From: Dehalococcoidia bacterium | GTDB lineage: Bacteria > Chloroflexota > Dehalococcoidia > Lucifugimonadales > Australimonadaceae | Assembly: GCA_965248065.1 (NCBI GenBank) | Contig: OZ252088.1 | Span: 1,827,343 to 1,891,342 of the forward strand | Length of the DNA stretch: 64,000 nt | Reading direction: 5' to 3' | In this document: piece by piece, positions 3,481-63,127 of the stretch | Layout of the letters: each line of letters opens with the position of its first letter | How positions within the stretch are numbered: position 1 is the stretch's first letter | Translations under genes and position numbers: made by a program | The notes under the pieces: model-generated | What the model saw: only the letters and a program-made list of their open reading frames with translations | Told to the model about the DNA's origin: nothing | The model's database searches: none

Positions 3481-3505
3481 GGCCGCGCCGCGCTCGCGAA
3501 TATCC

Positions 3506-3547
3506 GTCATTCCCGCACAGGCGGGAACCTCGCAGCGGCGCGACAGC
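3506..3547 (+). repeat. REP-like palindrome family 1 (GTCATTCCC-N8-GGGAACCTCG(T/C)AGCGGCGCGACAGC)
   Basis: Other copies at ~11909, 28992, 30604 (half), 34451, 34541, 35200 (half), 37191, 45985, 46091, 47240/48291 (split by IS30), 49463. Confidence 0.85.
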
Positions 3548-3581: not shown

Positions 3582-3622
3582 GACATCTGCCCCTTCCCCC
3601 AGCATCCTCATCTCCCTACCAT
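3582..3622 (+). promoter_or_regulatory. conserved promoter-like module copy A
   Basis: GACATCTGCCC-1nt-TTCCCC-17nt-TACCAT; same geometry at 11842-11882, 46502-46542, 61464-61504. Confidence 0.55.
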
Positions 3623-3898
3623 GTTTGTCTTGGATTTGTCGGAGGGTTCGCCTAAACCCGGCGCAGCCTAGCTGCCAGTCCAACTTACGAGTAAATTGCG
3701 CAGAATTGCACAGTTTTGCGCAATTCTTCCGCCATCCACTCGTAGGCCTGTGCATTTTACGAGTGAAGGCGAGCGCAAATTCGGCCGTTTGAGGCAAAAT
3801 TCGCGCAAACCGAGAGCCCCTGGGGCTCCTCCACCGTCTCGTTGGGATCTGGGCTGCGGAGTCTCATTGGGTGTACAATGTAGGTCGCTGAGAACCTT

Positions 3899-8906: not shown

Positions 8907-9386
8907 ATGCCGCGTGTAAGCTCGCTGGGACACATCGGCCTCTTCTGCAATGACCTGCCGGTCATGCGTGATTTCTACACCCGGGTGCTCGGGATGACGG
9001 TGACCGACGAGAACATGGAGCGCGGGATGGTGTTCCTTTCGGCAAGGCCCGGCGACGAGCACCACGAGCTCTTGCTCATGGGCGGACGCAACGGACCGGA
9101 GGACGCCAAGATCGTCCAACAGATCTCCTTCCACGTGGACAGCATCGACAGCGTGCGCGAGTTCCACCAGGGCTTCGAGGCTGATGGCGTGCCGGTCGAT
9201 TCCGTCGTCACCCACGGCAACACGGCCAGCGTCTACTTCCGGGACCCTGAAGGCAACCGGCTGGAGGTCTACTACAGCCTGCCCGTCGAGTGGCCCCAGC
9301 CGTTCAGGGCCGAGATCGACCTTACCCAGAGCACTGAGCAGGTGCTCCAACAGATCCACGAGGCGACGTTCGGCGCTAAGAAATAG
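8907..9386 (+). CDS. VOC/glyoxalase family protein
   Basis: LGHIGL...FYTRVLG, HHEL, SVYFRDPEGNRLE. Confidence 0.9.
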   Translation: MPRVSSLGHIGLFCNDLPVMRDFYTRVLGMTVTDENMERGMVFLSARPGDEHHELLLMGGRNGPEDAKIVQQISFHVDSIDSVREFHQGFEADGVPVDSVVTHGNTASVYFRDPEGNRLEVYYSLPVEWPQPFRAEIDLTQSTEQVLQQIHEATFGAKK

Positions 9387-9468
9387 CTGTTTTTGCGGAT
9401 GGATAGCTGCGGCGCGGCAGTCTACTGCCTAAGCGCCCAGCCCAACAGCCGCACCGCCAGGAGGAGTA

Positions 9469-9894
9469 ATGACTGCCCAGAAAACCGCTACAAAGGTCTT
9501 CGATTTCCTGACCGACGAGATTCTCGCCGGGACAGGCGACATCGTCCTGCCCGGCTCCGACGACCTCTCCGGCGTGATCAAACGCTACGAGAGCGGCGGC
9601 GAGAACCGGATGCACAGCCACCCTACCGAAGACCACGCTTTCTACATTCTCGACGGCGAAGCGACGTTTCACTTGGAGAAGGACGAGAACGTCGTAGTCG
9701 TCGGCAAGAACCAGGCGGTCTTCCTGCCGAGAGGCGCCCGGTACTGGTTCCACAGTTCCGGCGCCTCCAAGCTCATCATCCTCCGCACTGGCACTCAGAC
9801 CGGCTCCGATCGCATCATCGACGGCCGCACGGTGACGAGCCGCCGGACGGTCGAGGGCGCCGAGCGTGTGGAACCCAAGGAGCTGCCGTTCTAG
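9469..9894 (+). CDS. cupin domain protein
   Basis: GGENRMHSHPTEDHAFYILDG cupin motif 1. Confidence 0.85.
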   Translation: MTAQKTATKVFDFLTDEILAGTGDIVLPGSDDLSGVIKRYESGGENRMHSHPTEDHAFYILDGEATFHLEKDENVVVVGKNQAVFLPRGARYWFHSSGASKLIILRTGTQTGSDRIIDGRTVTSRRTVEGAERVEPKELPF

Positions 9895-9960
9895 CAGCGC
9901 CGTTTCGATAGAAGTTTTTGACTCTGGGCGGGGACCCAAGCCGCCCGAAGAGGAGGAGCC

Positions 9961-11220
9961 ATGACAACAGAGCCGCGATACATAGAGCCCACGGGCAACA
10001 GGCGCGCTGGGTGGCATAGAGAGGGCGAGACCGGCACTAGCTACACCGTCCGCCTCGCGACGGCGTGGGAGAAGTTCCAGAAGGCCGAGGGCATCCCTGT
10101 CTTCAAAGGAGTCGGCGTGTACGACTCGCGAGAGCTGCCGAGGACCGAGTGGAAGCGCGTCGGCGGAAAAGGGACCTACATCCAGGTGACCGGCACGAAC
10201 AACGCCACGGGCATGTTCGTGGTCGAAGTGCCCCCGCGCGGCGCCCTCCTCCCCCAGCGGCAGATGTATGAGGAGCGCTACATCGTCATGGAAGGCCGCG
10301 GCAGCACCGAGGTCTGGCGTAACGGCGACACCGCGATGACCGCCTTCGAATGGCAGCCCTGGAGCCTGTTCGCCATTCCGCTGAACGCAAACTTCCGCAT
10401 CATCAACTCGTCTTCCTCCCCTGCCCTGCTGCTCGCCGTGAACTCCGCGCCGCGGACCATCAACGCCTTCCAGAACATGGACTTCGTGTTCAATTGCGAG
10501 TTCAACTTCGAGGACCGCCTCGGCGGCAACCTGGAGGACTACTGGAACCCCAACGACGAGATCGAGCCTCAGCCCGTCCGAGGACGGGCGATGGTCACGT
10601 CGAACCTCCTGCCCGACATCCAGAACGCCTACCTGCCCTTGGACAACAACCGCGGCCCCGGCTTCCGATGGGTCGCTCCCAATCAGGTAGGGAACACCAT
10701 GATTCAAGGCTGGATCGCCGAGTACCCCAGCGGCCGTTACGCCAAGGCCCACGCCCACGCCTCCGGCGCCGTCCTCGTCTGCTGCAAGGGCCACGGCTTC
10801 TCGTGGACATGGCCGAGCGACGCGGGGCTGACGCCCTGGCAGGACGGGAAAGGCGACCTCGTCAAGATTCAGGAGTACGGCCCCGGCGGACTGATCAGCG
10901 CCGCGCCGGGACCGGCCAACTGGTTCCACCAGCACTTCGCCGTCGGCAAGGACCCGTTCCGCGTCTTCAACTACACCGGCCCCTACCCCGGCAACCCGGA
11001 GGCGGGCCGCAATCGCGCCAACGACTTCGCCGAGGAAGGCGAGATGATTCGTCAGCACGCCGACGTAACGGACGGCGGCAACGCCATCCCCTACCACCTC
11101 GAAGACCCCTACGTGCGTCGGCATTTCGAATCGAAGCTGACGGAGAATGGCGCCGTCTCGACGATGCCGGATATCGTGTACACCGAGGCTGGCGCGAACA
11201 TGGAAGTGATGTCCGACTAG
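9961..11220 (+). CDS. bicupin protein
   Basis: Two cupin motifs (MYEERYIVMEGRGST; KAHAH...WFHQHF); paralog of 19004-20242. Confidence 0.85.
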   Translation: MTTEPRYIEPTGNRRAGWHREGETGTSYTVRLATAWEKFQKAEGIPVFKGVGVYDSRELPRTEWKRVGGKGTYIQVTGTNNATGMFVVEVPPRGALLPQRQMYEERYIVMEGRGSTEVWRNGDTAMTAFEWQPWSLFAIPLNANFRIINSSSSPALLLAVNSAPRTINAFQNMDFVFNCEFNFEDRLGGNLEDYWNPNDEIEPQPVRGRAMVTSNLLPDIQNAYLPLDNNRGPGFRWVAPNQVGNTMIQGWIAEYPSGRYAKAHAHASGAVLVCCKGHGFSWTWPSDAGLTPWQDGKGDLVKIQEYGPGGLISAAPGPANWFHQHFAVGKDPFRVFNYTGPYPGNPEAGRNRANDFAEEGEMIRQHADVTDGGNAIPYHLEDPYVRRHFESKLTENGAVSTMPDIVYTEAGANMEVMSD

Positions 11221-11669
11221 CATCCGCGAGGCGGCGGCAAGTGTGGGGAGCCGGCGCAGCCTCCTCCCCGCGCTGCCGCCACGCTGTCCTGGAACGAGCG
11301 ATGCGACTAACGCGGCGGGAGCAGCTGGGGGGCGGCGCCCGGCCAGTCCGCAATCGGCGCCGGTCCGGCGCATCGCGCGACCGCAAGGGCTTGGTTTGTC
11401 CGACGATGTCTCATCCGTCTCACTCGTAACTTTCCCCGGCCTACGAGTGCGTGGGGGCTGCCTCTCGCAAACAGTGCGCCATTTGGTCTCATTTGGTCTC
11501 ATTTTACTCCTGGCGGGACCACCCCTAGCCCCTCCTTGGTAAGGAGGGGGACAGGCGTAAGGCAGCCCAGGTCTACGGGTGGGGTGAGCGCCGATTTTTC
11601 CAAAACTGTCGCATTTTCATAGTTTTTACTCGTGTCTGGGGGTTTCGGGCGCGACAGTTCCGCCCCATT

Positions 11670-11742
11670 TTGCGACAGTAAATGCGACACTTTGCAACAC
11701 AAATGCGACAGTTTGCGACACAAATCCGACACTTTCCGACAG
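11670..11742. repeat. 10-11 bp phased TGCGACA repeats
   Basis: tttgcgacagtaaatgcgacactttgcaacacaaatgcgacagtttgcgacacaaatccgaca; near-copy at 46368-46446. Confidence 0.85.
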
Positions 11743-11841
11743 GGGCCGGTGGTCCGACAGGCTCACCACTAACTGCGGTCCTGTTTCAACCTCAGGGGGC
11801 GTCGGGGCGTGGAGCATGCGGGCGATTGGGGCATGGGAGAC

Positions 11842-11882
11842 AGGATAGGGAACAGCGGTCGGTTGCGCAACGGGCAAATGTC
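11842..11882 (-). promoter_or_regulatory. conserved promoter-like module copy B
   Basis: GACATTTGCCC-1nt-TTGCGC-17nt-TATCCT on minus strand. Confidence 0.6.
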
Positions 11883-11983
11883 ACTATGGCAACTTGGGAT
11901 ACGAGGGCGCTATCGCTCCGCTACGAGGGTTCCCGCCTTCGCGGGAGTGACGGAGAGGGGGCGTGGTCCTTTCGCCCGTCTGC

Positions 11984-12170
11984 GGGACCTTTGCGCAATC
12001 CTATTTTCTGGCGGGCGCAACTCTTCCCACCCACCCGCCCGTCATGTTGCGGGGGACACCCCCACGCCCCCGGCAGAGGGGCGTCGCCCCTCTGCGCTCC
12101 CCCGTATTCCAAAGCCGGTCCATGCTCGGACAGGCCCGCCACGAACCGGTTGAAGTTGTGCAAAGATCTC
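11984..12170. mobile_element. MITE-like element with G(A/G)GACCTTTGC termini
   Basis: TIR gggacctttgcgcaa / ttgtgcaaagatctc; flanked both sides by GTCTGC; internal ~120 bp nearly identical to 49527-49650. Confidence 0.65.
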
Positions 12171-29331: not shown

Positions 29332-30561
29332 TCACCTTCTTGGTGGGGTTTTTACTCGTAAAGGCGGAAGACTTGTGTCGCCGAAAGGGGTACTTTCGCC
29401 TTCTTGGTCGGGGCTGTTTAGCAGGCCACGGCCTGCTTCCCGCGACCAAGAATGCGAGCGAAATGTGTTTTCACGCATCGGAGAGCCGTGCGGGGGGTCT
29501 CGTGTCCCCCGATGCCTTTCCGCGATTTCCCGGTCCTGTCCGCGCCATAGGTGTTCCTCGTCCGATGATTTCTGAATGGTGAATCCACATTTGAAGTGCA
29601 ACACCTGCTCCTCGACGACCCCCGCCGGTGTCCGGTAGCCCAGGCACTTGCGCGGCGTATTGTTGTACGCCTGCCCGATCAGCGCAAACCGCTCATCCGA
29701 CACCTCCCCCAGATTCGTCCCCCGCGGCAGGAACCGCCGCAGCCGGCCGATCGCGTTCTCCACTCCCCCCTTCTGCCACGGCGAGTACGTGTCGCAGAAG
29801 AACGTCTCGATGCCCAACCGGTGGAGCTCGTAGTGACGGGTGAACTCGGTCCCATTGTCGAAGGTCACCGTCTGGCGAAACTCCGGCGGCAACGGCCCCA
29901 GCATCCGGGCGATGGACTCCGCGATCGGCCCCGCCTCCTTCGACGGCGCACGCGCGAGAAGCAAGAGGCGCGAGGAGCGTTCCTGCAGGGCCAACACCAC
30001 CTCTCCCGACCTCCCGAACTGCATCGTGTCCGCCTCCCAGTGCCCGAAGGTCCGCCGGTCGGCCGCCGCTGCAGGCCGTTCCGAGAGCGCCCTCCGGAGG
30101 GGGATGAAGGAAACCGAGCTTCCCCCCCTGCGGCCCCGCCTCCCCCGCTTCCACTTCGCCCTCGGCAAGTAGCGCCGCCAATCATGGTCTTTGTGCCGCG
30201 CGGCCTGGGCGTAGACGAACCGGTAGATGCTCTCGTCCGAGGTCACCGTCCGGCCCTCCTCTCTGCGCATCTCATGGGCGACCTGCTCCGGCGACCACCC
30301 CCACTTCAGGCCCGCCAAGACCCGCTCCCGCAACCCCTCGTCCCGTTCCAGCCGCGCCCCCGTCCAGCGCCGCGCGCGGGCACGCTCCTGGGCCGGCGAC
30401 GCTTGGTACCCGCCCGTTCGCAGCGCGTTCCGCTTCAGCTCCCGAGCCACGGTCGATGCCGCGCGATCCAGAGTTGTAGCGACTTGCCGGACCGAGGAGC
30501 CCTTGGCGCGTAAGCGGGCAATCTCACACCGTTCCTCAATGCAGAGCTGTCTGTATTCCAT
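29332..30561 (-). CDS. IS30 transposase (reads through the right end)
   Basis: HTH N-terminus, GHWEAD, TFDNGTEF, PWQKGGVEN, NNTPRKCLG. Confidence 0.92.
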   Translation of the reverse strand: MEYRQLCIEERCEIARLRAKGSSVRQVATTLDRAASTVARELKRNALRTGGYQASPAQERARARRWTGARLERDEGLRERVLAGLKWGWSPEQVAHEMRREEGRTVTSDESIYRFVYAQAARHKDHDWRRYLPRAKWKRGRRGRRGGSSVSFIPLRRALSERPAAAADRRTFGHWEADTMQFGRSGEVVLALQERSSRLLLLARAPSKEAGPIAESIARMLGPLPPEFRQTVTFDNGTEFTRHYELHRLGIETFFCDTYSPWQKGGVENAIGRLRRFLPRGTNLGEVSDERFALIGQAYNNTPRKCLGYRTPAGVVEEQVLHFKCGFTIQKSSDEEHLWRGQDREIAERHRGTRDPPHGSPMRENTFRSHSWSREAGRGLLNSPDQEGESTPFGDTSLPPLRVKTPPRR

Positions 30562-34599: not shown

Positions 34600-35229
34600 T
34601 TAGAACCAGACGTTCATGTTGGGGGGTTCCATGAAGGCGAGGGCGAGGGCGTCGGCTTTGTCGGGGGAGGGGACGCCTTGGCGGCGGAGGGTCGCCTTGC
34701 TTTCGAGGTGGATGCGCCCCGCCGACGAGATGTCGTAGCGCTGCGCGAGGAGCTGGCCCGCAAGCTCGTCGTCGGGCGGGAGGGACATCTGCCCCTCGCG
34801 GAGGCGGCGGGCCAGCTCCCAGAACGTCTCGGCCCGCATGTCGGCGAACTGGGCGGGACGGTAGGCCCTGCCGCCGCCCTCGACGCCGATGACGGGGACG
34901 CGGAGCTGCTTCAGGCGGTCGACGACGCCCCCGCCGACGCCTGTTTCGTCGACGAAGATGGCGGGGACGCGCAGGGTCTCGGCGAGCTCGCGGACCTCGT
35001 CGGCGAGGCGCATGGTGTCCTTCCGCTCGAAGGTGATGAGGCGCTCGACGCGGTCGCCGCGGCGGAGGCAGATGACGGACTTGTCGTTGCCGAACCGGGC
35101 GACGTCCACGCCCATGCGCCAGGGCTGGTTGAGGTGGGGGCCGTCGCTGGGCGGGATGAGGGGGGCCGCCTCCCCCGCAGACGGGAGAGGAGAGGGATCG
35201 CTGCGCTGTCGCGCCGCTACGAGGTTCCC
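34600..35229 (-). pseudogene. terminase large subunit, C-terminal nuclease fragment
   Basis: GVDVARFGNDKSV, VDETGVGGGVVD, RAETFW, LESK, SPDKADAL. Confidence 0.85.
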
Positions 35230-36253
35230 TGAATCCACAAACGAAGTGCAACACCAGATTAGGGTGTTGCCATGGAATACAGACAGCTCTGCATTGAGGA
35301 ACGGTGTGAGATTGCCCGCTTACGCGCCAAGGGCTCCTCGGTCCGGCAAGTCGCTACAACTCTGGATCGCGCGGCATCGACCGTGGCTCGGGAGCTGAAG
35401 CGGAACGCGCTGCGAACGGACGGGTACCAAGCGTCGCCGGCCCAGGAGCGTGCCCGCGCGCGGCGCTGGACGGGGGCGCGGCTGGAACGGGACGAGGGGT
35501 TGCGGGAGCGGGTCTTGGCGGGCCTGAAGTGGGGGTGGTCGCCGGAGCAGGTCGCCCATGAGATGCGCAGAGAGGAGGGCCGGACGGTGACCTCGGACGA
35601 GAGCATCTACCGGTTCGTCTACGCCCAGGCCGCGCGGCACAAAGACCATGATTGGCGGCGCTACTTGCCGAGGGCGAAGTGGAAGCGGGGGAGGCGGGGC
35701 CGCAGGGGGGGAAGCTCGGTTTCCTTCATTCCCCTCCGCCGACCCGTTGCTGAGCGGCCTGCAGCGGCGGCCGACCGGCGGACCTTCGGGCACTGGGAGG
35801 CGGACACGATGCAGTTCGGGAGGTCGGGAGAGGTGGTGTTGGCCCTGCAGGAACGCTCCTCGCGCCTCTTGCTCCTCGCGCGTGCGCCGTCGAAGGAGGC
35901 GGGGCCGATCGCGGAGTCCATCGCCCGGATGCTGGGGCCGTTGCCGCCGGAGTTTCGCCAGACGGTGACCTTCGACAATGGGACCGAGTTCACCCGTCAC
36001 TACGAGCTCCACCGGTTGGGCATCGAGACGTTCTTCTGCGACACGTACTCGCCGTGGCAGAAGGGGGGAGTGGAGAACGCGATCGGCCGGCTGCGGCGGT
36101 TCCTGCCGCGGGGGACGAATCTGGGGGAGGTGTCGGATGAGCGGTTTGCGCTGATCGGGCAGGCGTACAACAATACGCCGCGCAAGTGCCTGGGCTACCG
36201 GACACCGGCGGGGGTCGTCGAGGAGCAGGTGTTGCACTTCAAATGTGGATTCA
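35230..36253 (+). mobile_element. IS30 family element copy 2, interrupting terminase
   Basis: Same TIRs and length. Confidence 0.95.
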
Positions 36254-36876
36254 CCGTCTGGGCCCCACTCCTGGCGGCGCTCCTCCACGTCCTCGGGCGT
36301 GACGAGGCCGGGGAGCGCGTCGAGACGGCCCTCCTGGACGTTGGGGGAGTCGTAGGCGGAGATGGAGACGCGCTCGTAGAGGGGGCTCTTGCCGTGGTGG
36401 GAGTCGTAGAACTCGCCGGTGAGGCTGAGGGGGTTGCCCAACAGGAGCATCTTCTTGGGGTTGAGGCGTTTGAGCGCTTCGAAGTAGGGCTGCTTGACGC
36501 CTTGGGCCTCGGTGACGATGACGAGGAGCTCCGGGGAATGGAAGCCCTGCAGGTTGTGCTGGTTGTTGGAGGTGACGCAGAGGCCGACGCGGTCGGGGCC
36601 GGCGCGGTACTCGCCGACGCGGACGGCGCCGGAGAGCCGGTGTTTGGCGGCGGCGTGGGCGGCGCGCAGCTCCTCCCAGACGATCTCCTTGACCTGCCGG
36701 AGGGTGGGGCCGGTGACGATGACCTTGGCTTTGGGGCGTGTCTCGATCCACCAGAGGATGGCGCGGGCGGCGGCCCAGTCCTTGCCGGAGGAGTTGCATC
36801 CGACGACGGAGACGCGCCGTTTGTCGCTGACGAGGGCGCGGAGCAGCTCTTCCTGCTTGGCGTAGGGCGTCCCTGA
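35272..36876 (+). CDS. IS30 transposase with long read-through extension
   Basis: DDE motifs; no stop inside the IS. Confidence 0.85.
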   Translation: MEYRQLCIEERCEIARLRAKGSSVRQVATTLDRAASTVARELKRNALRTDGYQASPAQERARARRWTGARLERDEGLRERVLAGLKWGWSPEQVAHEMRREEGRTVTSDESIYRFVYAQAARHKDHDWRRYLPRAKWKRGRRGRRGGSSVSFIPLRRPVAERPAAAADRRTFGHWEADTMQFGRSGEVVLALQERSSRLLLLARAPSKEAGPIAESIARMLGPLPPEFRQTVTFDNGTEFTRHYELHRLGIETFFCDTYSPWQKGGVENAIGRLRRFLPRGTNLGEVSDERFALIGQAYNNTPRKCLGYRTPAGVVEEQVLHFKCGFTVWAPLLAALLHVLGRDEAGERVETALLDVGGVVGGDGDALVEGALAVVGVVELAGEAEGVAQQEHLLGVEAFERFEVGLLDALGLGDDDEELRGMEALQVVLVVGGDAEADAVGAGAVLADADGAGEPVFGGGVGGAQLLPDDLLDLPEGGAGDDDLGFGACLDPPEDGAGGGPVLAGGVASDDGDAPFVADEGAEQLFLLGVGRP

Positions 36877-45733: not shown

Positions 45734-45943
45734 GTAACGGACCTCAAGATGTTGTGGTTATTCGGACGTTGGAGCGCTCAGTATAGGCGCGGCAGGGAGA
45801 GGGGTCAACGCACAGACGAGCAAGGCCACGGCCTGCTAAAGAGGGCTTACTTTACAGAAAACGGAGGCATCAAGGGGCAAGAGACCCCTCGGCACGCCTT
45901 TCTCTCTATTCGACTAGAGCGCCGGTCCTCGTCTCCCGCAGAC

Positions 45944-46267
45944 GAGACCTTTGCACGATTGTTCAACGCCGGGGACCCGGGGGCGAGGTTCCCGTCTGCG
46001 CGGGAATCCTTCACGTTGGGGCTGACGCCCCACACCACAAGCAACGAAAGTGAGGGGCGGACGCCTGGGGCGAGGGGCAGGAACCGCGCCGCTGTCGCGC
46101 CGCTACGAGGTTCCCGCCTACGCGGGAATGACGGGCAGGGGGCGCGGGGGTGACGGGGGAAGTCTGCGCGCTGCCGCCTCTCCTCCCCTGCGCTTTGCTG
46201 CGCCCGCGCGTCCCCTCCCGTAGACGGGAGGGGGTTTCCATGACGGAAGGCTAGTTGCAAAGGTCTC
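45944..46267. mobile_element. MITE-like element with GAGACCTTTGCA termini carrying REP cargo
   Basis: GAGACCTTTGCA ... TGCAAAGGTCTC; flanks GCAGAC / GCAGGC. Confidence 0.65.
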
Positions 46268-46367
46268 GCAGGCGGGGAGAGGCTTTTCGAGCGCCTATTT
46301 TTTCTCGAAACTGTCGCATTTGTCGGATTTTCCGTGGTATTCACTCCTAAGTGCGCGGTCCGCGCAC

Positions 46368-46446
46368 GACAGTTTGCGACAGCAAATGCGACACTTTGCG
46401 ACACAAATGCGACGGTTTGCGACAGTGATGCGACACTCTGCGACAG
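46368..46446. repeat. 10-11 bp phased TGCGACA repeats
   Basis: Near-copy of 11670-11742. Confidence 0.85.
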
Positions 46447-46501: not shown

Positions 46502-46542
46502 AGGGTAGGAGAAGGGGTCCGTTTGCGCAACGGGCAGATGTC
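46502..46542 (-). promoter_or_regulatory. conserved promoter-like module copy C
   Basis: GACATCTGCCC-1nt-TTGCGC-17nt-TACCCT. Confidence 0.6.
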
Positions 46543-47264: not shown

Positions 47265-48288
47265 TGAATCCACAAACGAAGTGCAACACCAGATTAGGGT
47301 GTTGCCATGGAATACAGACAGCTCTGCATTGAGGAACGGTGTGAGATTGCCCGCTTACGCGCCAAGGGCTCCTCGGTCCGGCAAGTCGCTACAACTCTGG
47401 ATCGCGCGGCATCGACCGTGGCTCGGGAGCTGAAGCGGAACGCACTGCGAACGGACGGGTACCAAGCGTCGCCGGCCCAGGAGCGTGCCCGCGCGCGGCG
47501 CTGGACGGGGGCGCGGCTGGAACGGGACGAGGGGTTGCGGGAGCGGGTCTTGGCGGGCCTGAAGTGGGGGTGGTCGCCGGAGCAGGTCGCCCATGAGATG
47601 CGCAGAGAGGAGGGCCGGACGGTGACCTCGGACGAGAGCATCTACCGGTTCGTCTACGCCCAGGCCGCGCGGCACAAAGACCATGATTGGCGGCGCTACT
47701 TGCCGAGGGCGAAGTGGAAGCGGGGGAGGCGGGGCCGCAGGGGGGGAAGCTCGGTTTCCTTCATTCCCCTCCGCCGACCCGTTGCTGAGCGGCCTGCAGC
47801 GGCGGCCGACCGGCGGACCTTCGGGCACTGGGAGGCGGACACGATGCAGTTCGGGAGGTCGGGAGAGGTGGTGTTGGCCCTGCAGGAACGCTCCTCGCGC
47901 CTCTTGCTCCTCGCGCGTGCGCCGTCGAAGGAGGCGGGGCCGATCGCGGAGTCCATCGCCCGGATGCTGGGGCCGTTGCCGCCGGAGTTTCGCCAGACGG
48001 TGACCTTCGACAATGGGACCGAGTTCACCCGTCACTACGAGCTCCACCGGTTGGGCATCGAGACGTTCTTCTGCGACACGTACTCGCCGTGGCAGAAGGG
48101 GGGAGTGGAGAACGCGATCGGCCGGCTGCGGCGGTTCCTGCCGCGGGGGACGAATCTGGGGGAGGTGTCGGATGAGCGGTTTGCGCTGATCGGGCAGGCG
48201 TACAACAATACGCCGCGCAAGTGCCTGGGCTACCGGACACCGGCGGGGGTCGTCGAGGAGCAGGTGTTGCACTTCAAATGTGGATTCA
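47265..48288 (+). mobile_element. IS30 family element copy 3, inserted within REP family 1
   Basis: Left flank gctacgaggttccc, right flank cc-ttcccgccttcgcgggaatgac. Confidence 0.95.
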
Positions 48289-48311
48289 CCTTCCCGCCTT
48301 CGCGGGAATGA
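47307..48311 (+). CDS. IS30 transposase (334 aa; stop supplied by target REP)
   Basis: DDE motifs; ends CGFTFPPSRE*. Confidence 0.93.
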   Translation: MEYRQLCIEERCEIARLRAKGSSVRQVATTLDRAASTVARELKRNALRTDGYQASPAQERARARRWTGARLERDEGLRERVLAGLKWGWSPEQVAHEMRREEGRTVTSDESIYRFVYAQAARHKDHDWRRYLPRAKWKRGRRGRRGGSSVSFIPLRRPVAERPAAAADRRTFGHWEADTMQFGRSGEVVLALQERSSRLLLLARAPSKEAGPIAESIARMLGPLPPEFRQTVTFDNGTEFTRHYELHRLGIETFFCDTYSPWQKGGVENAIGRLRRFLPRGTNLGEVSDERFALIGQAYNNTPRKCLGYRTPAGVVEEQVLHFKCGFTFPPSRE

Positions 48312-59904: not shown

Positions 59905-61206
59905 CTAGGCGGTCGGGGCTGCTTCCCAGGGCGGGGCCTCGGCCCACGGCTTCAGGAAGGCCTCGATCTCCTTGACGTGCGCGTCGCTCTGGCCCGCCTG
60001 GGAGGGCACGAACTTGGCCATGCGCGCGGGGTTGTTCATCGACGGCCAGTGCTCGAGCGGGAGGTTGATGCACTCGTTGATCTTGGGGTCGCGCACCGTG
60101 CCGAGCGGGTCGCCTCCGTCGGCTACGACGGTCATCTGCTCGGTGAGGAGCTTGCGGTAGAGGATGATGCCGCGGTCGGACTCGCCGAGGTGCTCGCGGT
60201 GTCTGGGGGCGATGCCGCCCTGGGTGATCCACGCGACGAAGTCCTGGTGGTTGACCAGGTCCTCGATCAGGCGTCCGTCAGGCTCGTACAGAGGGACGTT
60301 GAAGTAGGGGATGGTCTGCTGGGGCTCGACCTGCTGGCCGGGCGCGGCGCGGTAGAAGTACCAGGTGACGTGGAGGGTGTGCTCGTCGTCCACCGGCGTC
60401 CGGAACTGCATGGAGCAGCGCACCGAGCTGCCGACGAACAGGATCTGCGGGAACATCACCGGGTGGCCAACGGCCCAGTCGCCGTGGGACTCGTCGATGC
60501 CCTCGGTGATACGGCGCTTGACGATGCCGTAGTCGAAGACGTCGAACCCGATCTTCTGGTGCCGCTTGGGAAGGATGCCAACCTCGTCGGCCTTGGCCAG
60601 TCCAAGGCGCACGGCCTTGTCGTGCTGCTGGCGCACGCCCCAATAGCCGTGCAGCCATTCGAGGTGCACCGGGTCCAGGGAGTTCTCCATGCACTGGAGC
60701 CAGTTGCAGGGCAGCGGCGCAAGGGCGACCTCGCTCCAGCCGTCCTCCCAGGTAAAGGGCTCCCAGTTCGGAAGAAGGGGCGCGGGGGCCGGGCCCATGT
60801 ACGCGAAGATCATGCCCGCCAGCGACTGCACGGGGTAGCCCGCAATCTTGACCTTCTCCTTAAAGCGCCCGTCCGGGTGGACCGTTTCCTCGAAGGGCTG
60901 CTCGATGCACTGGCCGGTCTCGTCCATCATCCAGCCGTGGTACATGCAGCGCAGGCCATGCTCCTCGGGGATGCCGTAGGAGAGGTCGACGCGGCGGTGG
61001 GGACAGAAGCGGTCGATGAGGCCGAGCGTGCCGGACTTGTCCTTGTAGAGGACGAGGTCCTCGCCGAGGAGGCGCACCGGCTTGGTGGGTTTGTCGTCGA
61101 GCTCGCCGACGGCGGCGATGGGATGCCAGTAGCGGCGCATGAGCTCGCCCATCGGCGTGCCGGCGCCCACCCTCGATAGCTTGTCGTTCTCCTGGATGTT
61201 GAGCAT
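59905..61206 (-). CDS. Rieske non-heme iron oxygenase alpha subunit, paralog
   Basis: CPHR..CMYHGW; ENSLDPVHLEWLH. Confidence 0.92.
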   Translation of the reverse strand: MLNIQENDKLSRVGAGTPMGELMRRYWHPIAAVGELDDKPTKPVRLLGEDLVLYKDKSGTLGLIDRFCPHRRVDLSYGIPEEHGLRCMYHGWMMDETGQCIEQPFEETVHPDGRFKEKVKIAGYPVQSLAGMIFAYMGPAPAPLLPNWEPFTWEDGWSEVALAPLPCNWLQCMENSLDPVHLEWLHGYWGVRQQHDKAVRLGLAKADEVGILPKRHQKIGFDVFDYGIVKRRITEGIDESHGDWAVGHPVMFPQILFVGSSVRCSMQFRTPVDDEHTLHVTWYFYRAAPGQQVEPQQTIPYFNVPLYEPDGRLIEDLVNHQDFVAWITQGGIAPRHREHLGESDRGIILYRKLLTEQMTVVADGGDPLGTVRDPKINECINLPLEHWPSMNNPARMAKFVPSQAGQSDAHVKEIEAFLKPWAEAPPWEAAPTA

Positions 61207-61463
61207 GGTCGGTCTCCTATTCAACGCTGACGGGCCGAATGGCGGGATTGTAGCACTGCTGCGCAAGCGTGGGCGCTGCTCCGAGCGCGAATGTCCCCGG
61301 ATGTCCTCGCCCGCGCACTCGTGCGGCGGCAGGCGCTACGAGCACCGGGCGGCGCGTTCTTTCCTAACGGTCTCATTTGGTCTCATTTAGTCTCATTTCA
61401 CTCGTAAGGCCTCCGCTCCAACCCTCCCCCCGGATGGCGGAGGGGATAAGGCTCCAGGCAGAC

Positions 61464-61504
61464 ATGGTAGGGGGAGCGGGGCGTTGGCGGAAGGGGCAAA
61501 TGTC
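61464..61504 (-). promoter_or_regulatory. conserved promoter-like module copy D
   Basis: GACATTTGCCC-1nt-TTCCGC-17nt-TACCAT, followed by TTACGAGTGAA and (AAATGAGACY)x3. Confidence 0.55.
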
Positions 61505-61560: not shown

Positions 61561-61670
61561 GGCTATCGCCCTCTCCGATGCGGAGAGGGCGATAGCCTGT
61601 TCAGAGCCTGCCTCAACTTGGTCGCTCAATAGGCGCTTAACTCCCATCTTTGGCAGGCTCTGAACAGGCT
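61561..61670. repeat. two abutting perfect inverted repeats at the CRISPR boundary
   Basis: 17-bp stem 61561-61597; 19-bp IR AGCCTGTTCAGAGCCTGCC at 61594-61612 / 61652-61670. Confidence 0.85.
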
Positions 61671-61873: not shown

Positions 61874-62200
61874 TCAGAAGAGCGCGTACTGCTCTGGATT
61901 TCTGTTGGCTGGTCGGCGCACCGGCCCGTTGAAGCTGACGATGTTCTCGTACTGCTTGTCCGTGAAGTAGAGGATCTGCACATTGCCTGCCCGCGGTAGC
62001 GCGGATTGTACGCGGCGGGTGTAGACCTCCGCCTGCTCCTTCCCCGCGCAGAAGCGCATGTAGACGGAGAACTGACACATGCCGAACCCCTGGTCCAGCA
62101 GGAACTGGCGGAACTTGGTTGCCGCCCGCCGCTCTGATTTCGTCACCACCGGCAGGTCGAAGATCACCATCATCCACATGAGCCGGTACCCGGAGAGCAC
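61874..62200 (-). CDS. cas2: CRISPR-associated endonuclease Cas2
   Basis: MVIFDLPV, FRQFLLDQGF..QFSVY, TDKQY. Confidence 0.95.
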   Translation of the reverse strand: MLSGYRLMWMMVIFDLPVVTKSERRAATKFRQFLLDQGFGMCQFSVYMRFCAGKEQAEVYTRRVQSALPRAGNVQILYFTDKQYENIVSFNGPVRRPANRNPEQYALF

Positions 62201-62209
62201 GGGCGCTCC

Positions 62210-63127
62210 TCATTCCGTCTCATGGGCCGAATCCGTCAGAGGCTTGCCGGGGAAGACGAGCGCCGGGCTCCGAGCTTCGTAGGATTGCGCCGTTGACTGC
62301 GCGGCACGCTCGATGCAGGTCTGCAAGGGAGTGGTCCCGCGTTCCGTGCGCATGTCCATGACGAGGACGCCCGCGAGGGCACGTTTTGTTTCGCTGGTAA
62401 TCTCCTGATGCCCCGTCGCGGTCAGACGGACGACTGTAAAATCAACGACCGGCCTGAACGGCTCCATGAGGTCGTCCACGAGGCAGAAGGGGTTCGAGCG
62501 GTTGCTGTGGTGGATGCCGACGGAGGGATGAAGACCGGCCGCTGCGACGGCGCGGGCCACGGCGGCGCGGAGAACGGTGTAGCCGTAGTTGAGGAAAGCG
62601 TTGGCTCCTCCGGCGGAGCGGTCGCGGCGGAAACCGCTTCCGAAGAGCAGCGGCCAGTAGCGCCGCGCGGCTTGGGCTTCGATGTTGTCGGGGTCGCCCG
62701 AGCGCACGCGCGGGGCGAGCGCGGCGAGTCCTTCGCCGGAGGCTTGGCAGAGTTCGAGCACGTTCCGCTGCTGCTCTATTTTCGCTCTCACGATTGCTTG
62801 CCAGAGGCGCTTGCGGAGCGGTTGGGAGGCTTCCAGCTGGCAGCGCATGCGGAGCGCCTGGACGTAGTGGCCTTCCACCGGCCAGAGCCAGGCAACGGGG
62901 AGATAGTTGCTTCCGCAGAGCACCGCCGGAATACCGCGATTGGCGAGCTCCACAAGCAAATCGTTGGTATAGGTCAGGCCGTAGGCCGTGGCGTTGCAGA
63001 GCAGCACCGCGACATCGTCCAAAGGGATGCGTCCCTGCTCCGCTCCGTCCTTGGAGACAGTCAGGAACCCTCGGTGGCGGGCGAGGCTCTGCCCCTCGCT
63101 CGCCACTTCCACGACGCGGCCAATCAT
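62210..63127 (-). CDS. cas1: type II CRISPR-associated endonuclease Cas1
   Basis: GDPDNIEAQAARRYW, NAFLNYGYTVLR, GIHH, LVDDLMEPFRP. Confidence 0.96.
   Translation of the reverse strand: MIGRVVEVASEGQSLARHRGFLTVSKDGAEQGRIPLDDVAVLLCNATAYGLTYTNDLLVELANRGIPAVLCGSNYLPVAWLWPVEGHYVQALRMRCQLEASQPLRKRLWQAIVRAKIEQQRNVLELCQASGEGLAALAPRVRSGDPDNIEAQAARRYWPLLFGSGFRRDRSAGGANAFLNYGYTVLRAAVARAVAAAGLHPSVGIHHSNRSNPFCLVDDLMEPFRPVVDFTVVRLTATGHQEITSETKRALAGVLVMDMRTERGTTPLQTCIERAAQSTAQSYEARSPALVFPGKPLTDSAHETE

Follow-up and report, generated by a model that had tools for sequence, protein, structure and literature searches.

What are four intergenic regions of identical layout doing in one stretch of a Dehalococcoidia chromosome? 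The stretch analysed here, 64,000 nucleotides (nt) of contig OZ252088.1, is referred to as the window. Each of the four regions (copies A–D) carries an 11-nt box, GACAYYTGCCC, 1 nt upstream of a −35-like hexamer, which is followed by a 17-nt spacer, a TAnnnT −10 element and short units repeated in tandem. The observation is real, far larger than first described, and largely explained by truncated heads of a gene for a helix-turn-helix (HTH) protein that resembles the small subunit of phage terminases (TerS). The four sites are probably gene-less copies from a family about 185 strong that arose from the 5′ control region of a small, Dehalococcoidia-specific operon, and their repeats would form a protein-bound array.

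The promoter modules in the window and the genome

The first-pass annotation reported four modules with identical geometry, and both their positions and the 17-nt spacer between −35 and −10 were borne out; in the window promoters the box spans −47 to −37. Its count of four was far too low. The genome (G000; 3,168,340 bp, one contig, 65.4% G+C) contains about 185 such sites, and the window itself has a fifth exact 11-mer at 34784 (+), which has no promoter behind it and lies within a crudely called open reading frame (ORF). The proposal that the motif exceeds its background frequency holds for the whole architecture and fails for the 11-mer taken alone in the window, where five matches compare with a mean of 2.3 in shuffled sequence and 11 of 100 shuffles reach five. 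Genome-wide, there are 88 exact 11-mers compared to a mean of 1.5 for permuted 11-mers. The full architecture (at most two core mismatches followed by N1-TTNNNN-N17/18-TANNNT) is found at 185 sites with a spacer of 17 (87 sites) or 18 nt (98 sites), never 16 or 19, and at 0–1 sites for each of ten permuted cores. Further copies with preserved spacing, which had been predicted, thus exist in this genome and also in its relatives. The density of the promoter class is roughly one per 17 kb. The box, the best-conserved element, is fixed 1 nt from the −35 at 185 of 185 sites. It is not a general promoter feature because the rRNA promoter of this genome (TTGACG-N17-TATTCT) lacks it.

Clustering of the 400 nt downstream of each site gives mosaic groups of 83, 41, 30, 4 and 2 members and 25 singletons. 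The families comprise 41 (F1, with copies B and C), 14 (F2), 10 (F3), 25 (F4) and 27 (F5) copies. Crude GC3-based gene calls (2168 ORFs) place 178 of 184 sites between genes. Of these 178, 150 (84%, where about half would be expected) are directed toward the next gene's 5′ end, a median of 415 nt away. The gene on the upstream side has the same orientation as the site in 89 cases. The genes neighbouring modules keep their own extended −10 promoters near the start. Two other ideas about the downstream sequence were rejected: the leaders of F5 (CATCATG...) do not contain a conserved coding region, as their lengths and frames vary, and units resembling TGGCAC/TTGC are not sigma-54 sites, since by eye their 10-nt period gives the wrong GG–GC spacing.

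The 133-residue protein, its operon and its truncated heads

One family of downstream proteins (four members) is found entirely behind modules. Its ORFs are 133–135 codons long, and their start codon falls within the tandem units, as in ATGAGACCAAATGAGACC, which encodes MRPNET. A check for intact copies with a full reading frame had been suggested, and these terminase-small-subunit-like HTH genes are such copies. In this genome, tblastn detects the gene intact at four places, with a frameshift at one and as shorter fragments elsewhere. Of the 11 matches at E ≤ 0.08, 10 follow a module immediately and in the same orientation. The homologues form 84 clusters of 133–135 residues, all of them unnamed or "hypothetical". 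In an alignment of 33 homologues the body of the protein, including an HTH with the sequence TLxRWM, is highly conserved. The first ~12 residues vary and follow the pattern M-x-x-N, as dictated by an AATG every 10 nt, which indicates that the repeat is maintained as a nucleic-acid sequence.

A profile search finds 0–8 matches per genome across the family (fragments included; at most ~6 whole genes) and weaker relatives in other families of the order. In relatives, 10 of 11 gene loci have the promoter, a Shine-Dalgarno sequence of the AGAGGAGGA type and 2–3 tandem 10-nt units over the start; the sole locus without promoter and tandem units is L179. In 4–5 copies of this genome and in several relatives, the module appears, by sequence, to be the 5′ control region of a conserved gene, made up of promoter, leader, Shine-Dalgarno sequence and tandem units that cover the start codon. 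Such units are also present at loci of other families with plain TTGACA promoters, and in two distant relatives (G025 and G035) the same gene is driven by a plain TTGACA-N18-TAnnnT. Because of these two genomes, the box looks like a displaced old −35. In copies B and C an ATG does lie 7 nt after the −10, as had been noted; its reading as a gene start is not supported, since the frames opened at +1 are not conserved. The actual gene start lies ~70–220 nt beyond that ATG and is preceded by a Shine-Dalgarno sequence.

At four loci the gene is followed by an ORF of ~115 codons, which overlaps it by ATGA where intact. The partner protein has no Pfam match above threshold and belongs to no PADLOC family. 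The neighbours of intact gene copies are ordinary host genes, and no phage genes were found among them. Several copies of an IS30-like transposase (HTH_38 + rve) with identical N-termini are present at 29332–30561 (−), 35272–36876 (+) and 47307–48311 (+) of the window and at 2234527–2235531 of G000; one of them adjoins an intact HTH cassette.

The 133-residue protein is predicted to be an HTH protein with a small-terminase-like fold. Its only Pfam match is a sub-threshold one to HTH_Tnp_1_2, and NCBIfam gives nothing meaningful. All three proteins tested match phrog_2538 of PHROGs, "terminase small subunit", with E of 3–6e-6. The AlphaFold2 model (AF2; predicted local distance difference test, pLDDT, of 84) consists of a three-helix HTH (residues 14–24, 29–35 and 40–47) followed by a long helical hairpin (50–86 and 91–131), that is, the N-terminal HTH and helical oligomerisation domain expected of a TerS. 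TerS proteins assemble into rings of 8–11 subunits. The best matches in the PDB are chains of 2ao9 (phBC6A51 phage protein; nine chains, A–I, among the matches), with Sf6 gp1 at rank 19. These structural scores are weak (Foldseek probability 1.0 and E 0.018 for 2ao9; template modelling (TM) score 0.39–0.48, 15–17% identity). In the viral structure library BFVD the best match has an E of 8e-5 and a TM score of ~0.6, and several matches are named small terminases. A large terminase is found neither nearby nor elsewhere in G000 (no matches to PF03237, PF03354 or PF04466), the protein has no relative in 2.9 million viral contigs, and no defence-system model of PADLOC matches it or its partner.

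Gene-less copies match the start of this gene. When an intact F1-type element is used as a blastn query, 24–76 copies share its first ~330 nt, which run from the promoter to about codon 17; the rest of the ORF is found in 1–2 copies and the 3′ part in 3–5. Since only these ~330 nt are common to the multicopy family, B and C are 3′-truncated heads. In an alignment of six intact genes and eight gene-less cores, A and D included, collinearity begins at the Shine-Dalgarno sequence, includes the units and reaches about codon 16. The gene-less cores have ACGAGTRA where the gene has GAGGAGGA, and CACTCGTAG where it has CACCCGCCAG (codons 13–16, Ser/Thr-Pro-Arg-Gln). Past codon 16 the gene-less cores have a 13-nt loop and TACGAGTG, which completes an 8-bp inverted repeat. 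The resulting hairpin is perfect in 28 of 35 cores and its loop is 13 nt in 30 of 35; of 280 pairs, 269 are Watson-Crick, 8 are G–U and 3 are mismatches. The core near-palindrome gives 73 strand hits, which amount to ~37 elements; 36 of the hits have a promoter within the 450 nt upstream, so nearly every such hairpin is preceded by one. The interpretations first offered had included decay of a mobile gene, and the notion of decayed or truncated gene copies is supported, since intact copies exist and those of the window can be aligned with the first part of the 133-codon gene.

The gene-less type also occurs in G006, G011, G022 and other assemblies, where its units are different. It is thus an old, maintained form and not only the result of recent decay. 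Copies A and D apparently belong to this older gene-less lineage, which is also found in other genera and in which the Shine-Dalgarno sequence reads ACGAGT. The ACGAGT-type motif and units every 10–11 nt are present as first described: the tandem units are TTGCRCA in A, TGTCGCA and ATGAGAC in B, TGTCGCA in C and ATGAGAC in D. Arrays of the AATG type have 2–3 units, and those of inverted TGTCGCA have 2–9. The features are as follows (window coordinates, except for the last line).

3582–3622, +: predicted promoter of copy A (box 3582–3592, −35 TTCCCC 3594–3599, −10 TACCAT 3617–3622)
3688–3765, +: gene-less core of copy A, with ACGAGTA (3688–3694) in the Shine-Dalgarno place and three TTGCRCA units at 10-nt spacing (3696–3722)
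3737–3744 and 3758–3765, +: core hairpin of copy A, CACTCGTA pairing with TACGAGTG around a 13-nt loop
3773–3836, +: tail of copy A, with the inverted unit GCGCAAA (3773–3779 and 3803–3809) and a G+C hairpin
11842–11882, −: predicted promoter of copy B, family F1 (box 11872–11882, −35 TTGCGC 11865–11870, −10 TATCCT 11842–11847)
11607–11759, −: array and gene remnant of copy B, with eight TGTCGNN units at 10–11-nt spacing (11650–11759) and ACGAGTA (11626–11632); the shortened remnant of the gene's first codons holds one inverted unit TGCGACA (11607–11613)
11408–11510, −: second core of copy B, promoter-less and of the F3 kind, with AGGAGTA (11504–11510), ATGAGAC units (11486–11502) and a further unit (11408–11414)
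11442–11449 and 11421–11428, −: hairpin of this second core, CACTCGTA pairing with TACGAGTG
46502–46542, −: predicted promoter of copy C, family F1 (box 46532–46542, −35 TTGCGC 46525–46530, −10 TACCCT 46502–46507)
46290–46445, −: array and stub of copy C, with seven TGTCGCA units (46365–46445) and the Shine-Dalgarno sequence AGGAGTG (46341–46347); the dead stub has ~12–17 N-terminal codons, ACG in place of the start codon and an inverted unit (46312–46318)
61464–61504, −: predicted promoter of copy D (box 61494–61504, −35 TTCCGC 61487–61492, −10 TACCAT 61464–61469)
61316–61404, −: gene-less core of copy D, with ACGAGTG (61398–61404) and three ATGAGAC units (61370–61396)
61337–61344 and 61316–61323, −: core hairpin of copy D, TGCTCGTA pairing with CACGAGTG around a 13-nt loop, with two G–U pairs
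61247–61255, −: the Rieske oxygenase gene's own extended −10 promoter, TGCTACAAT, outside module D and given for context
598655–599008, 825894–826256, 1959824–1960168 and 2236223–2236558 of G000: partner ORFs, with a conserved T-C-x-C-P motif

Module A ends ~40 nt before the tmRNA's own TACAAT (3874–3879). A 708-codon ORF under copy B (9376–11502, −) was rejected as a high-G+C artefact: it has no Pfam match, and a cupin gene (9469–9894) and a 419-codon ORF lie on the opposite strand. With this frame discarded, copy B fires toward the 3′ end of convergent genes. The stub of copy C reads T-E-N-P-T-N-A-T... compared to M-E-N-Q-E-K-A-T... in the gene. In copy D, a 16-codon frame from the second ATG is closed by TAG exactly at the gene's invariant Gln codon.

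Several other elements are found near the modules. A separate dispersed hairpin resembling repetitive extragenic palindromic (REP) sequences, GTCATTCCCGCGnAGGCGGGAAC followed by CTCGTAGCGG, is interleaved with them (3505–3545, 11935–11990, 46095–46150 and many genome sites), and so are other G+C hairpin modules such as CCCCTCCTTACCAAGGAGGGG. Near copy C, a near-palindrome, AGCAGGCCGTGGCCT (~45830–45850, −), lies ~20 nt upstream of the TTGACC −35 of dnaN; four congeners have it too (it is seen at L184–L186). This motif, as GAAGCAGGCCACGGCC, also forms the conserved centre of F2 and F5 and of many loci in other genomes, and a transcription factor may bind it. Module D is directly preceded by the genes of Cas2 (PF09827, E 1e-16) and Cas1 (PF01867, E 2e-31) at 61874–63127 (−). 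The gap of ~370 nt between cas2 and the module contains a long inverted repeat (~61600–61665), and no array of clustered regularly interspaced short palindromic repeats (CRISPR) was seen in it. Elsewhere in G000, ARAGORN reports a selenocysteine tRNA (tRNA-SeC, 756843–756940) and two unusual tRNAs whose anticodons have only two letters (1669673 and 3087208).

Turnover among relatives and the competing explanations

The modules recur in related, SAR202-like genomes of the Dehalococcoidia. A strict pattern search including 41 relatives gives 134 matches in G000 and 71, 49 and 79 in three congeners versus 2, 1 and 2 in three others. Two other genera of the same family have 4 and 6 matches. The remaining 32 genomes, half of them from the family and half from the order, have none, and the reversed pattern has none in any genome searched. 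In a class-wide sample of 301 genomes, the matches are confined to the same family and two single matches elsewhere. Among named genome records, at least 100 loci match, nearly all in metagenome-assembled genomes titled Dehalococcoidia, Chloroflexota or SAR202; the matches listed include more than 25 assemblies with these names, and the few single matches in unrelated taxa look like chance. Searches of the literature for SAR202 noncoding RNA and Dehalococcoidia promoter motifs found no account of the module family or of its dispersed heads.

At orthologous sites the modules come and go. Module A is present in the smpB–ssrA spacer of G000 only, among the 18 relatives' loci inspected; in G005 and G001 this spacer is 110 nt long and keeps a box-like 17 nt, a hairpin and the 3′ flank, and the tmRNA promoter is conserved among the loci compared. 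Module D is found at the Rieske orthologues of G000, G001 and G005 (three of seven) and is absent from those of G004, G003, G002 and G011, while the gene's own TGCTACAAT promoter is kept in all seven loci, with or without the module. Module C is present upstream of dnaN in G000 only (one of six genomes), and the sequence around it is replaced. In all empty-site comparisons the flanks are either replaced or too diverged for insertion signatures. A Rieske gene behind a module in G011 (L010) was considered as a case of positional conservation across genera and discarded: it is a paralogue, and the true G011 orthologue has no module. The Rieske/LigXa-type oxygenase behind module D (59905–61206, −) is one of a very large set of paralogues, with 32 matches in G000 and 19–38 in relatives at E ≤ 1e-80.

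In the explanation that we consider probable, a complete unit would comprise the box, a sigma-70-type promoter (−35, N17/18, −10), a leader of 60–220 nt, a Shine-Dalgarno sequence, 2–3 tandem 10-nt units (AATGnnnnnn) over the start codon of the HTH protein gene and, usually, the overlapping partner gene. Most copies, A–D included, would have lost everything beyond about codon 16, and those of the F1 kind (B and C) would retain the Shine-Dalgarno sequence and a dead N-terminal stub behind an array of 7–8 inverted units. The helically phased units would, by analogy, be a DNA array bound by an oligomeric terminase-like protein; such binding is proposed because small HTH proteins such as BldC are known to bind phased direct repeats cooperatively. 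Intact copies would then autoregulate, solo copies would be live promoter-plus-operator cassettes that fire toward the neighbouring gene, and the few proteins still encoded could control these cassettes in trans. A protein-loading site, another of the interpretations in the first-pass annotation, would fit this on the analogy of the SPP1 pac site, as would the putative ring-type HTH protein encoded here. We regard as rather doubtful, and put forward tentatively, the further idea that a phage-derived terminase-like ring protein was domesticated in SAR202-type Dehalococcoidia together with a pac-like array and that the truncated heads of its gene, scattered before ~150 unrelated genes, became a transcription network of more than 100 solo sites read in trans by the few proteins left.

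Several observations weigh against this explanation. In a study of the SF6 terminase, its DNA-binding domain had little preference for pac repeats (PMC4737164), and thus the pac analogy is no proof of repeat binding. The recognition helix of the HTH is nearly invariant while the units differ widely; therefore, the protein, if it binds the units, must read the constant AATG and the phasing rather than the variable part. Seven ATGGCGC/ATGGCAC arrays and about five ATGTCYC arrays have no matching protein type in this genome. Families F2, F4 and F5 (~66 copies) are tied in by the promoter and the ACGAGT/ACTCGT motif and lie outside the gene alignment. The downstream genes show no family enrichment (25.5% are in families of at least 10 members versus 22 ± 3%) and no obvious regulon theme. 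Finally, the occurrence across genera of a gene-less type with its own hairpin may point to an independent function and not to simple decay.

Such a function could reside in RNA. The gene-less modules might be small RNA genes or cis-acting leader RNAs with a dedicated promoter class, in which the stems and unit/anti-unit pairs form RNA structure and the units serve as seeds or protein-binding motifs. The strict linkage of promoter and core agrees with this, as does the conservation of the core hairpin, which in L018 is changed on both sides. A perfect anti-unit within the same module is found for 13 of 43 unit types versus 23 of 504 cross-comparisons, and pairs between species are compensatory (TGTCGCA/TGCGACA versus TGTCGGA/TCCGACA); still, the remaining 30 of the 43 types lack a perfect anti-unit. 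Copy A folds better than 200 of 200 shuffles (z = −4.35), whereas copy D does no better than its shuffles (z = 0.11). Contigs from four metatranscriptome runs, which come from relatives 90–95% alike and show neither starts nor strand, have a summed depth of 139–695 over 11427–12028 versus 0–21 downstream (10825–11426) and 14–31 upstream. However, these are contigs, not reads, and F1 has 41 copies, so the depth over copy B is inseparable from copy number; that no contig covers 3601–3901, the leader of copy A, is uninformative, as the relatives lack module A. ACGAGT occurs in both orientations relative to the promoter among families, which fits DNA recognition equally well, and homology to a coding 5′ end explains the core. 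Rfam matches no module: at the gathering threshold it finds only tmRNA and tRNA in the window, and among 20 loci searched at E ≤ 0.5 no module is hit. We consider the RNA explanation unlikely. A type III toxin–antitoxin system with a ToxI-like repeat RNA was rejected: in such systems tandem repeats of ~34–36 nt are followed by a toxin gene, the units here measure 10–11 nt, and PADLOC matches neither protein.

The abundance of the modules could also result from transposition of selfish, non-autonomous mobile DNA that carries a promoter, akin to miniature inverted-repeat transposable elements (MITEs), REP sequences or bacterial interspersed mosaic elements (BIMEs). The swings in copy number between congeners (134, 71, 49 and 79 versus 1–2), the near-identical copies within families, the presence or absence of A, C and D at orthologous sites and a 545-bp duplicated unit with sharp ends all agree with mobility, and promoter reuse is a published general phenomenon (PMC3575422). 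Yet the 545-bp unit has neither terminal inverted repeats nor target duplications, only the 5′ part is common to the copies rather than both ends, and no transposase is linked to the modules. PF01797, the Y1 (IS200-like) family of REP-associated tyrosine transposases (RAYTs), has no match in seven genomes of the genus and one weak match in 25 genomes. Neighbouring sequence is replaced, not simply interrupted, and the 84% orientation bias and the conservation across genera point to selection. Selfish DNA is improbable as an explanation. Improbable to the same degree is the reading of the box as a class II-type activator or repressor site and of the modules as one regulon, the leading idea of the first-pass annotation. 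The strict conservation of the box and its fixed distance from the −35 speak for such a site, and the rRNA promoter lacks it. On the other hand, the box has no dyad symmetry, unlike the CRP/FNR consensus, no candidate factor was found, and in the distant relatives the leading GACA is part of the plain TTGACA −35. The CRP/FNR-type assignment is thus not supported. Lastly, the cassettes might be pac-like sites at which the protein, as a working small terminase, starts the packaging of host DNA by a phage or gene-transfer agent. The fold and profile of the protein and the SPP1-like layout of repeats, promoter and gene start invite this reading. It is very improbable, given that the three Pfam families searched revealed no large terminase in the genome, that ordinary host genes flank intact copies and that no relatives were found in viral contigs.

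SAR202-type Chloroflexota are abundant and uncultured, and their gene control is almost unstudied. The analysis provides a defined promoter class, a conserved and unnamed protein family (84 clusters) with a terminase-like fold and a testable link between the two. If the protein does bind the phased units, a phage packaging module would have been reused as a cellular regulator whose sites spread by copying of the gene head. For annotation, about 180 intergenic repeats are explained, and their promoters are likely sources of read-through and antisense transcription, copy B being an example.

Comparison with known systems

A close parallel is the pac site of the Bacillus phages SPP1 and SF6, in which, according to the published account, direct repeats span the promoter or promoters and the start of the small-terminase gene, whose product is an HTH protein (PMC4737164). 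The same repeat arrangement is found here, where the G000 copies and 10 of 11 loci of relatives have 2–3 units over the start codon behind a promoter. Unlike in SPP1 and SF6, the units are 10-nt tandem repeats that coincide with the start codon; the searches described above revealed no large terminase, no phage genes and no viral homologue; and each genome has 1–6 chromosomal gene copies and up to ~185 gene-less ones. The protein shares its predicted organization, an N-terminal three-helix HTH followed by a long helical hairpin, with phBC6A51-type proteins (2ao9) and Sf6 gp1.

The mode of binding proposed here, with multiple molecules of a small HTH protein bound to repeats spaced by one helical turn, would be that of BldC and of Xis- and RdfS-type proteins, which reportedly assemble head-to-tail on helically phased direct repeats (PMC5859096, PMC11963761). 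Their fold is MerR-like or winged HTH and differs from that of the protein described here.

With regard to the promoter, the site centred near −42 and abutting the −35 is shared with class II CRP/FNR promoters. Unlike CRP/FNR sites, the box is non-palindromic and probably derives from an old TTGACA −35. BIME/REP and Correia-type elements are mosaic intergenic repeats. REP and BIME differ from the modules, which have no RAYT and no inverted ends. Reused or "putative mobile" promoters, as reported, are highly similar promoter-bearing sequences upstream of unrelated genes (PMC3575422). The modules, too, lie upstream of unrelated genes. Unlike reused promoters, BIMEs and Correia-type elements, they have an identified source gene, and their copies are 3′-truncated heads of that gene.

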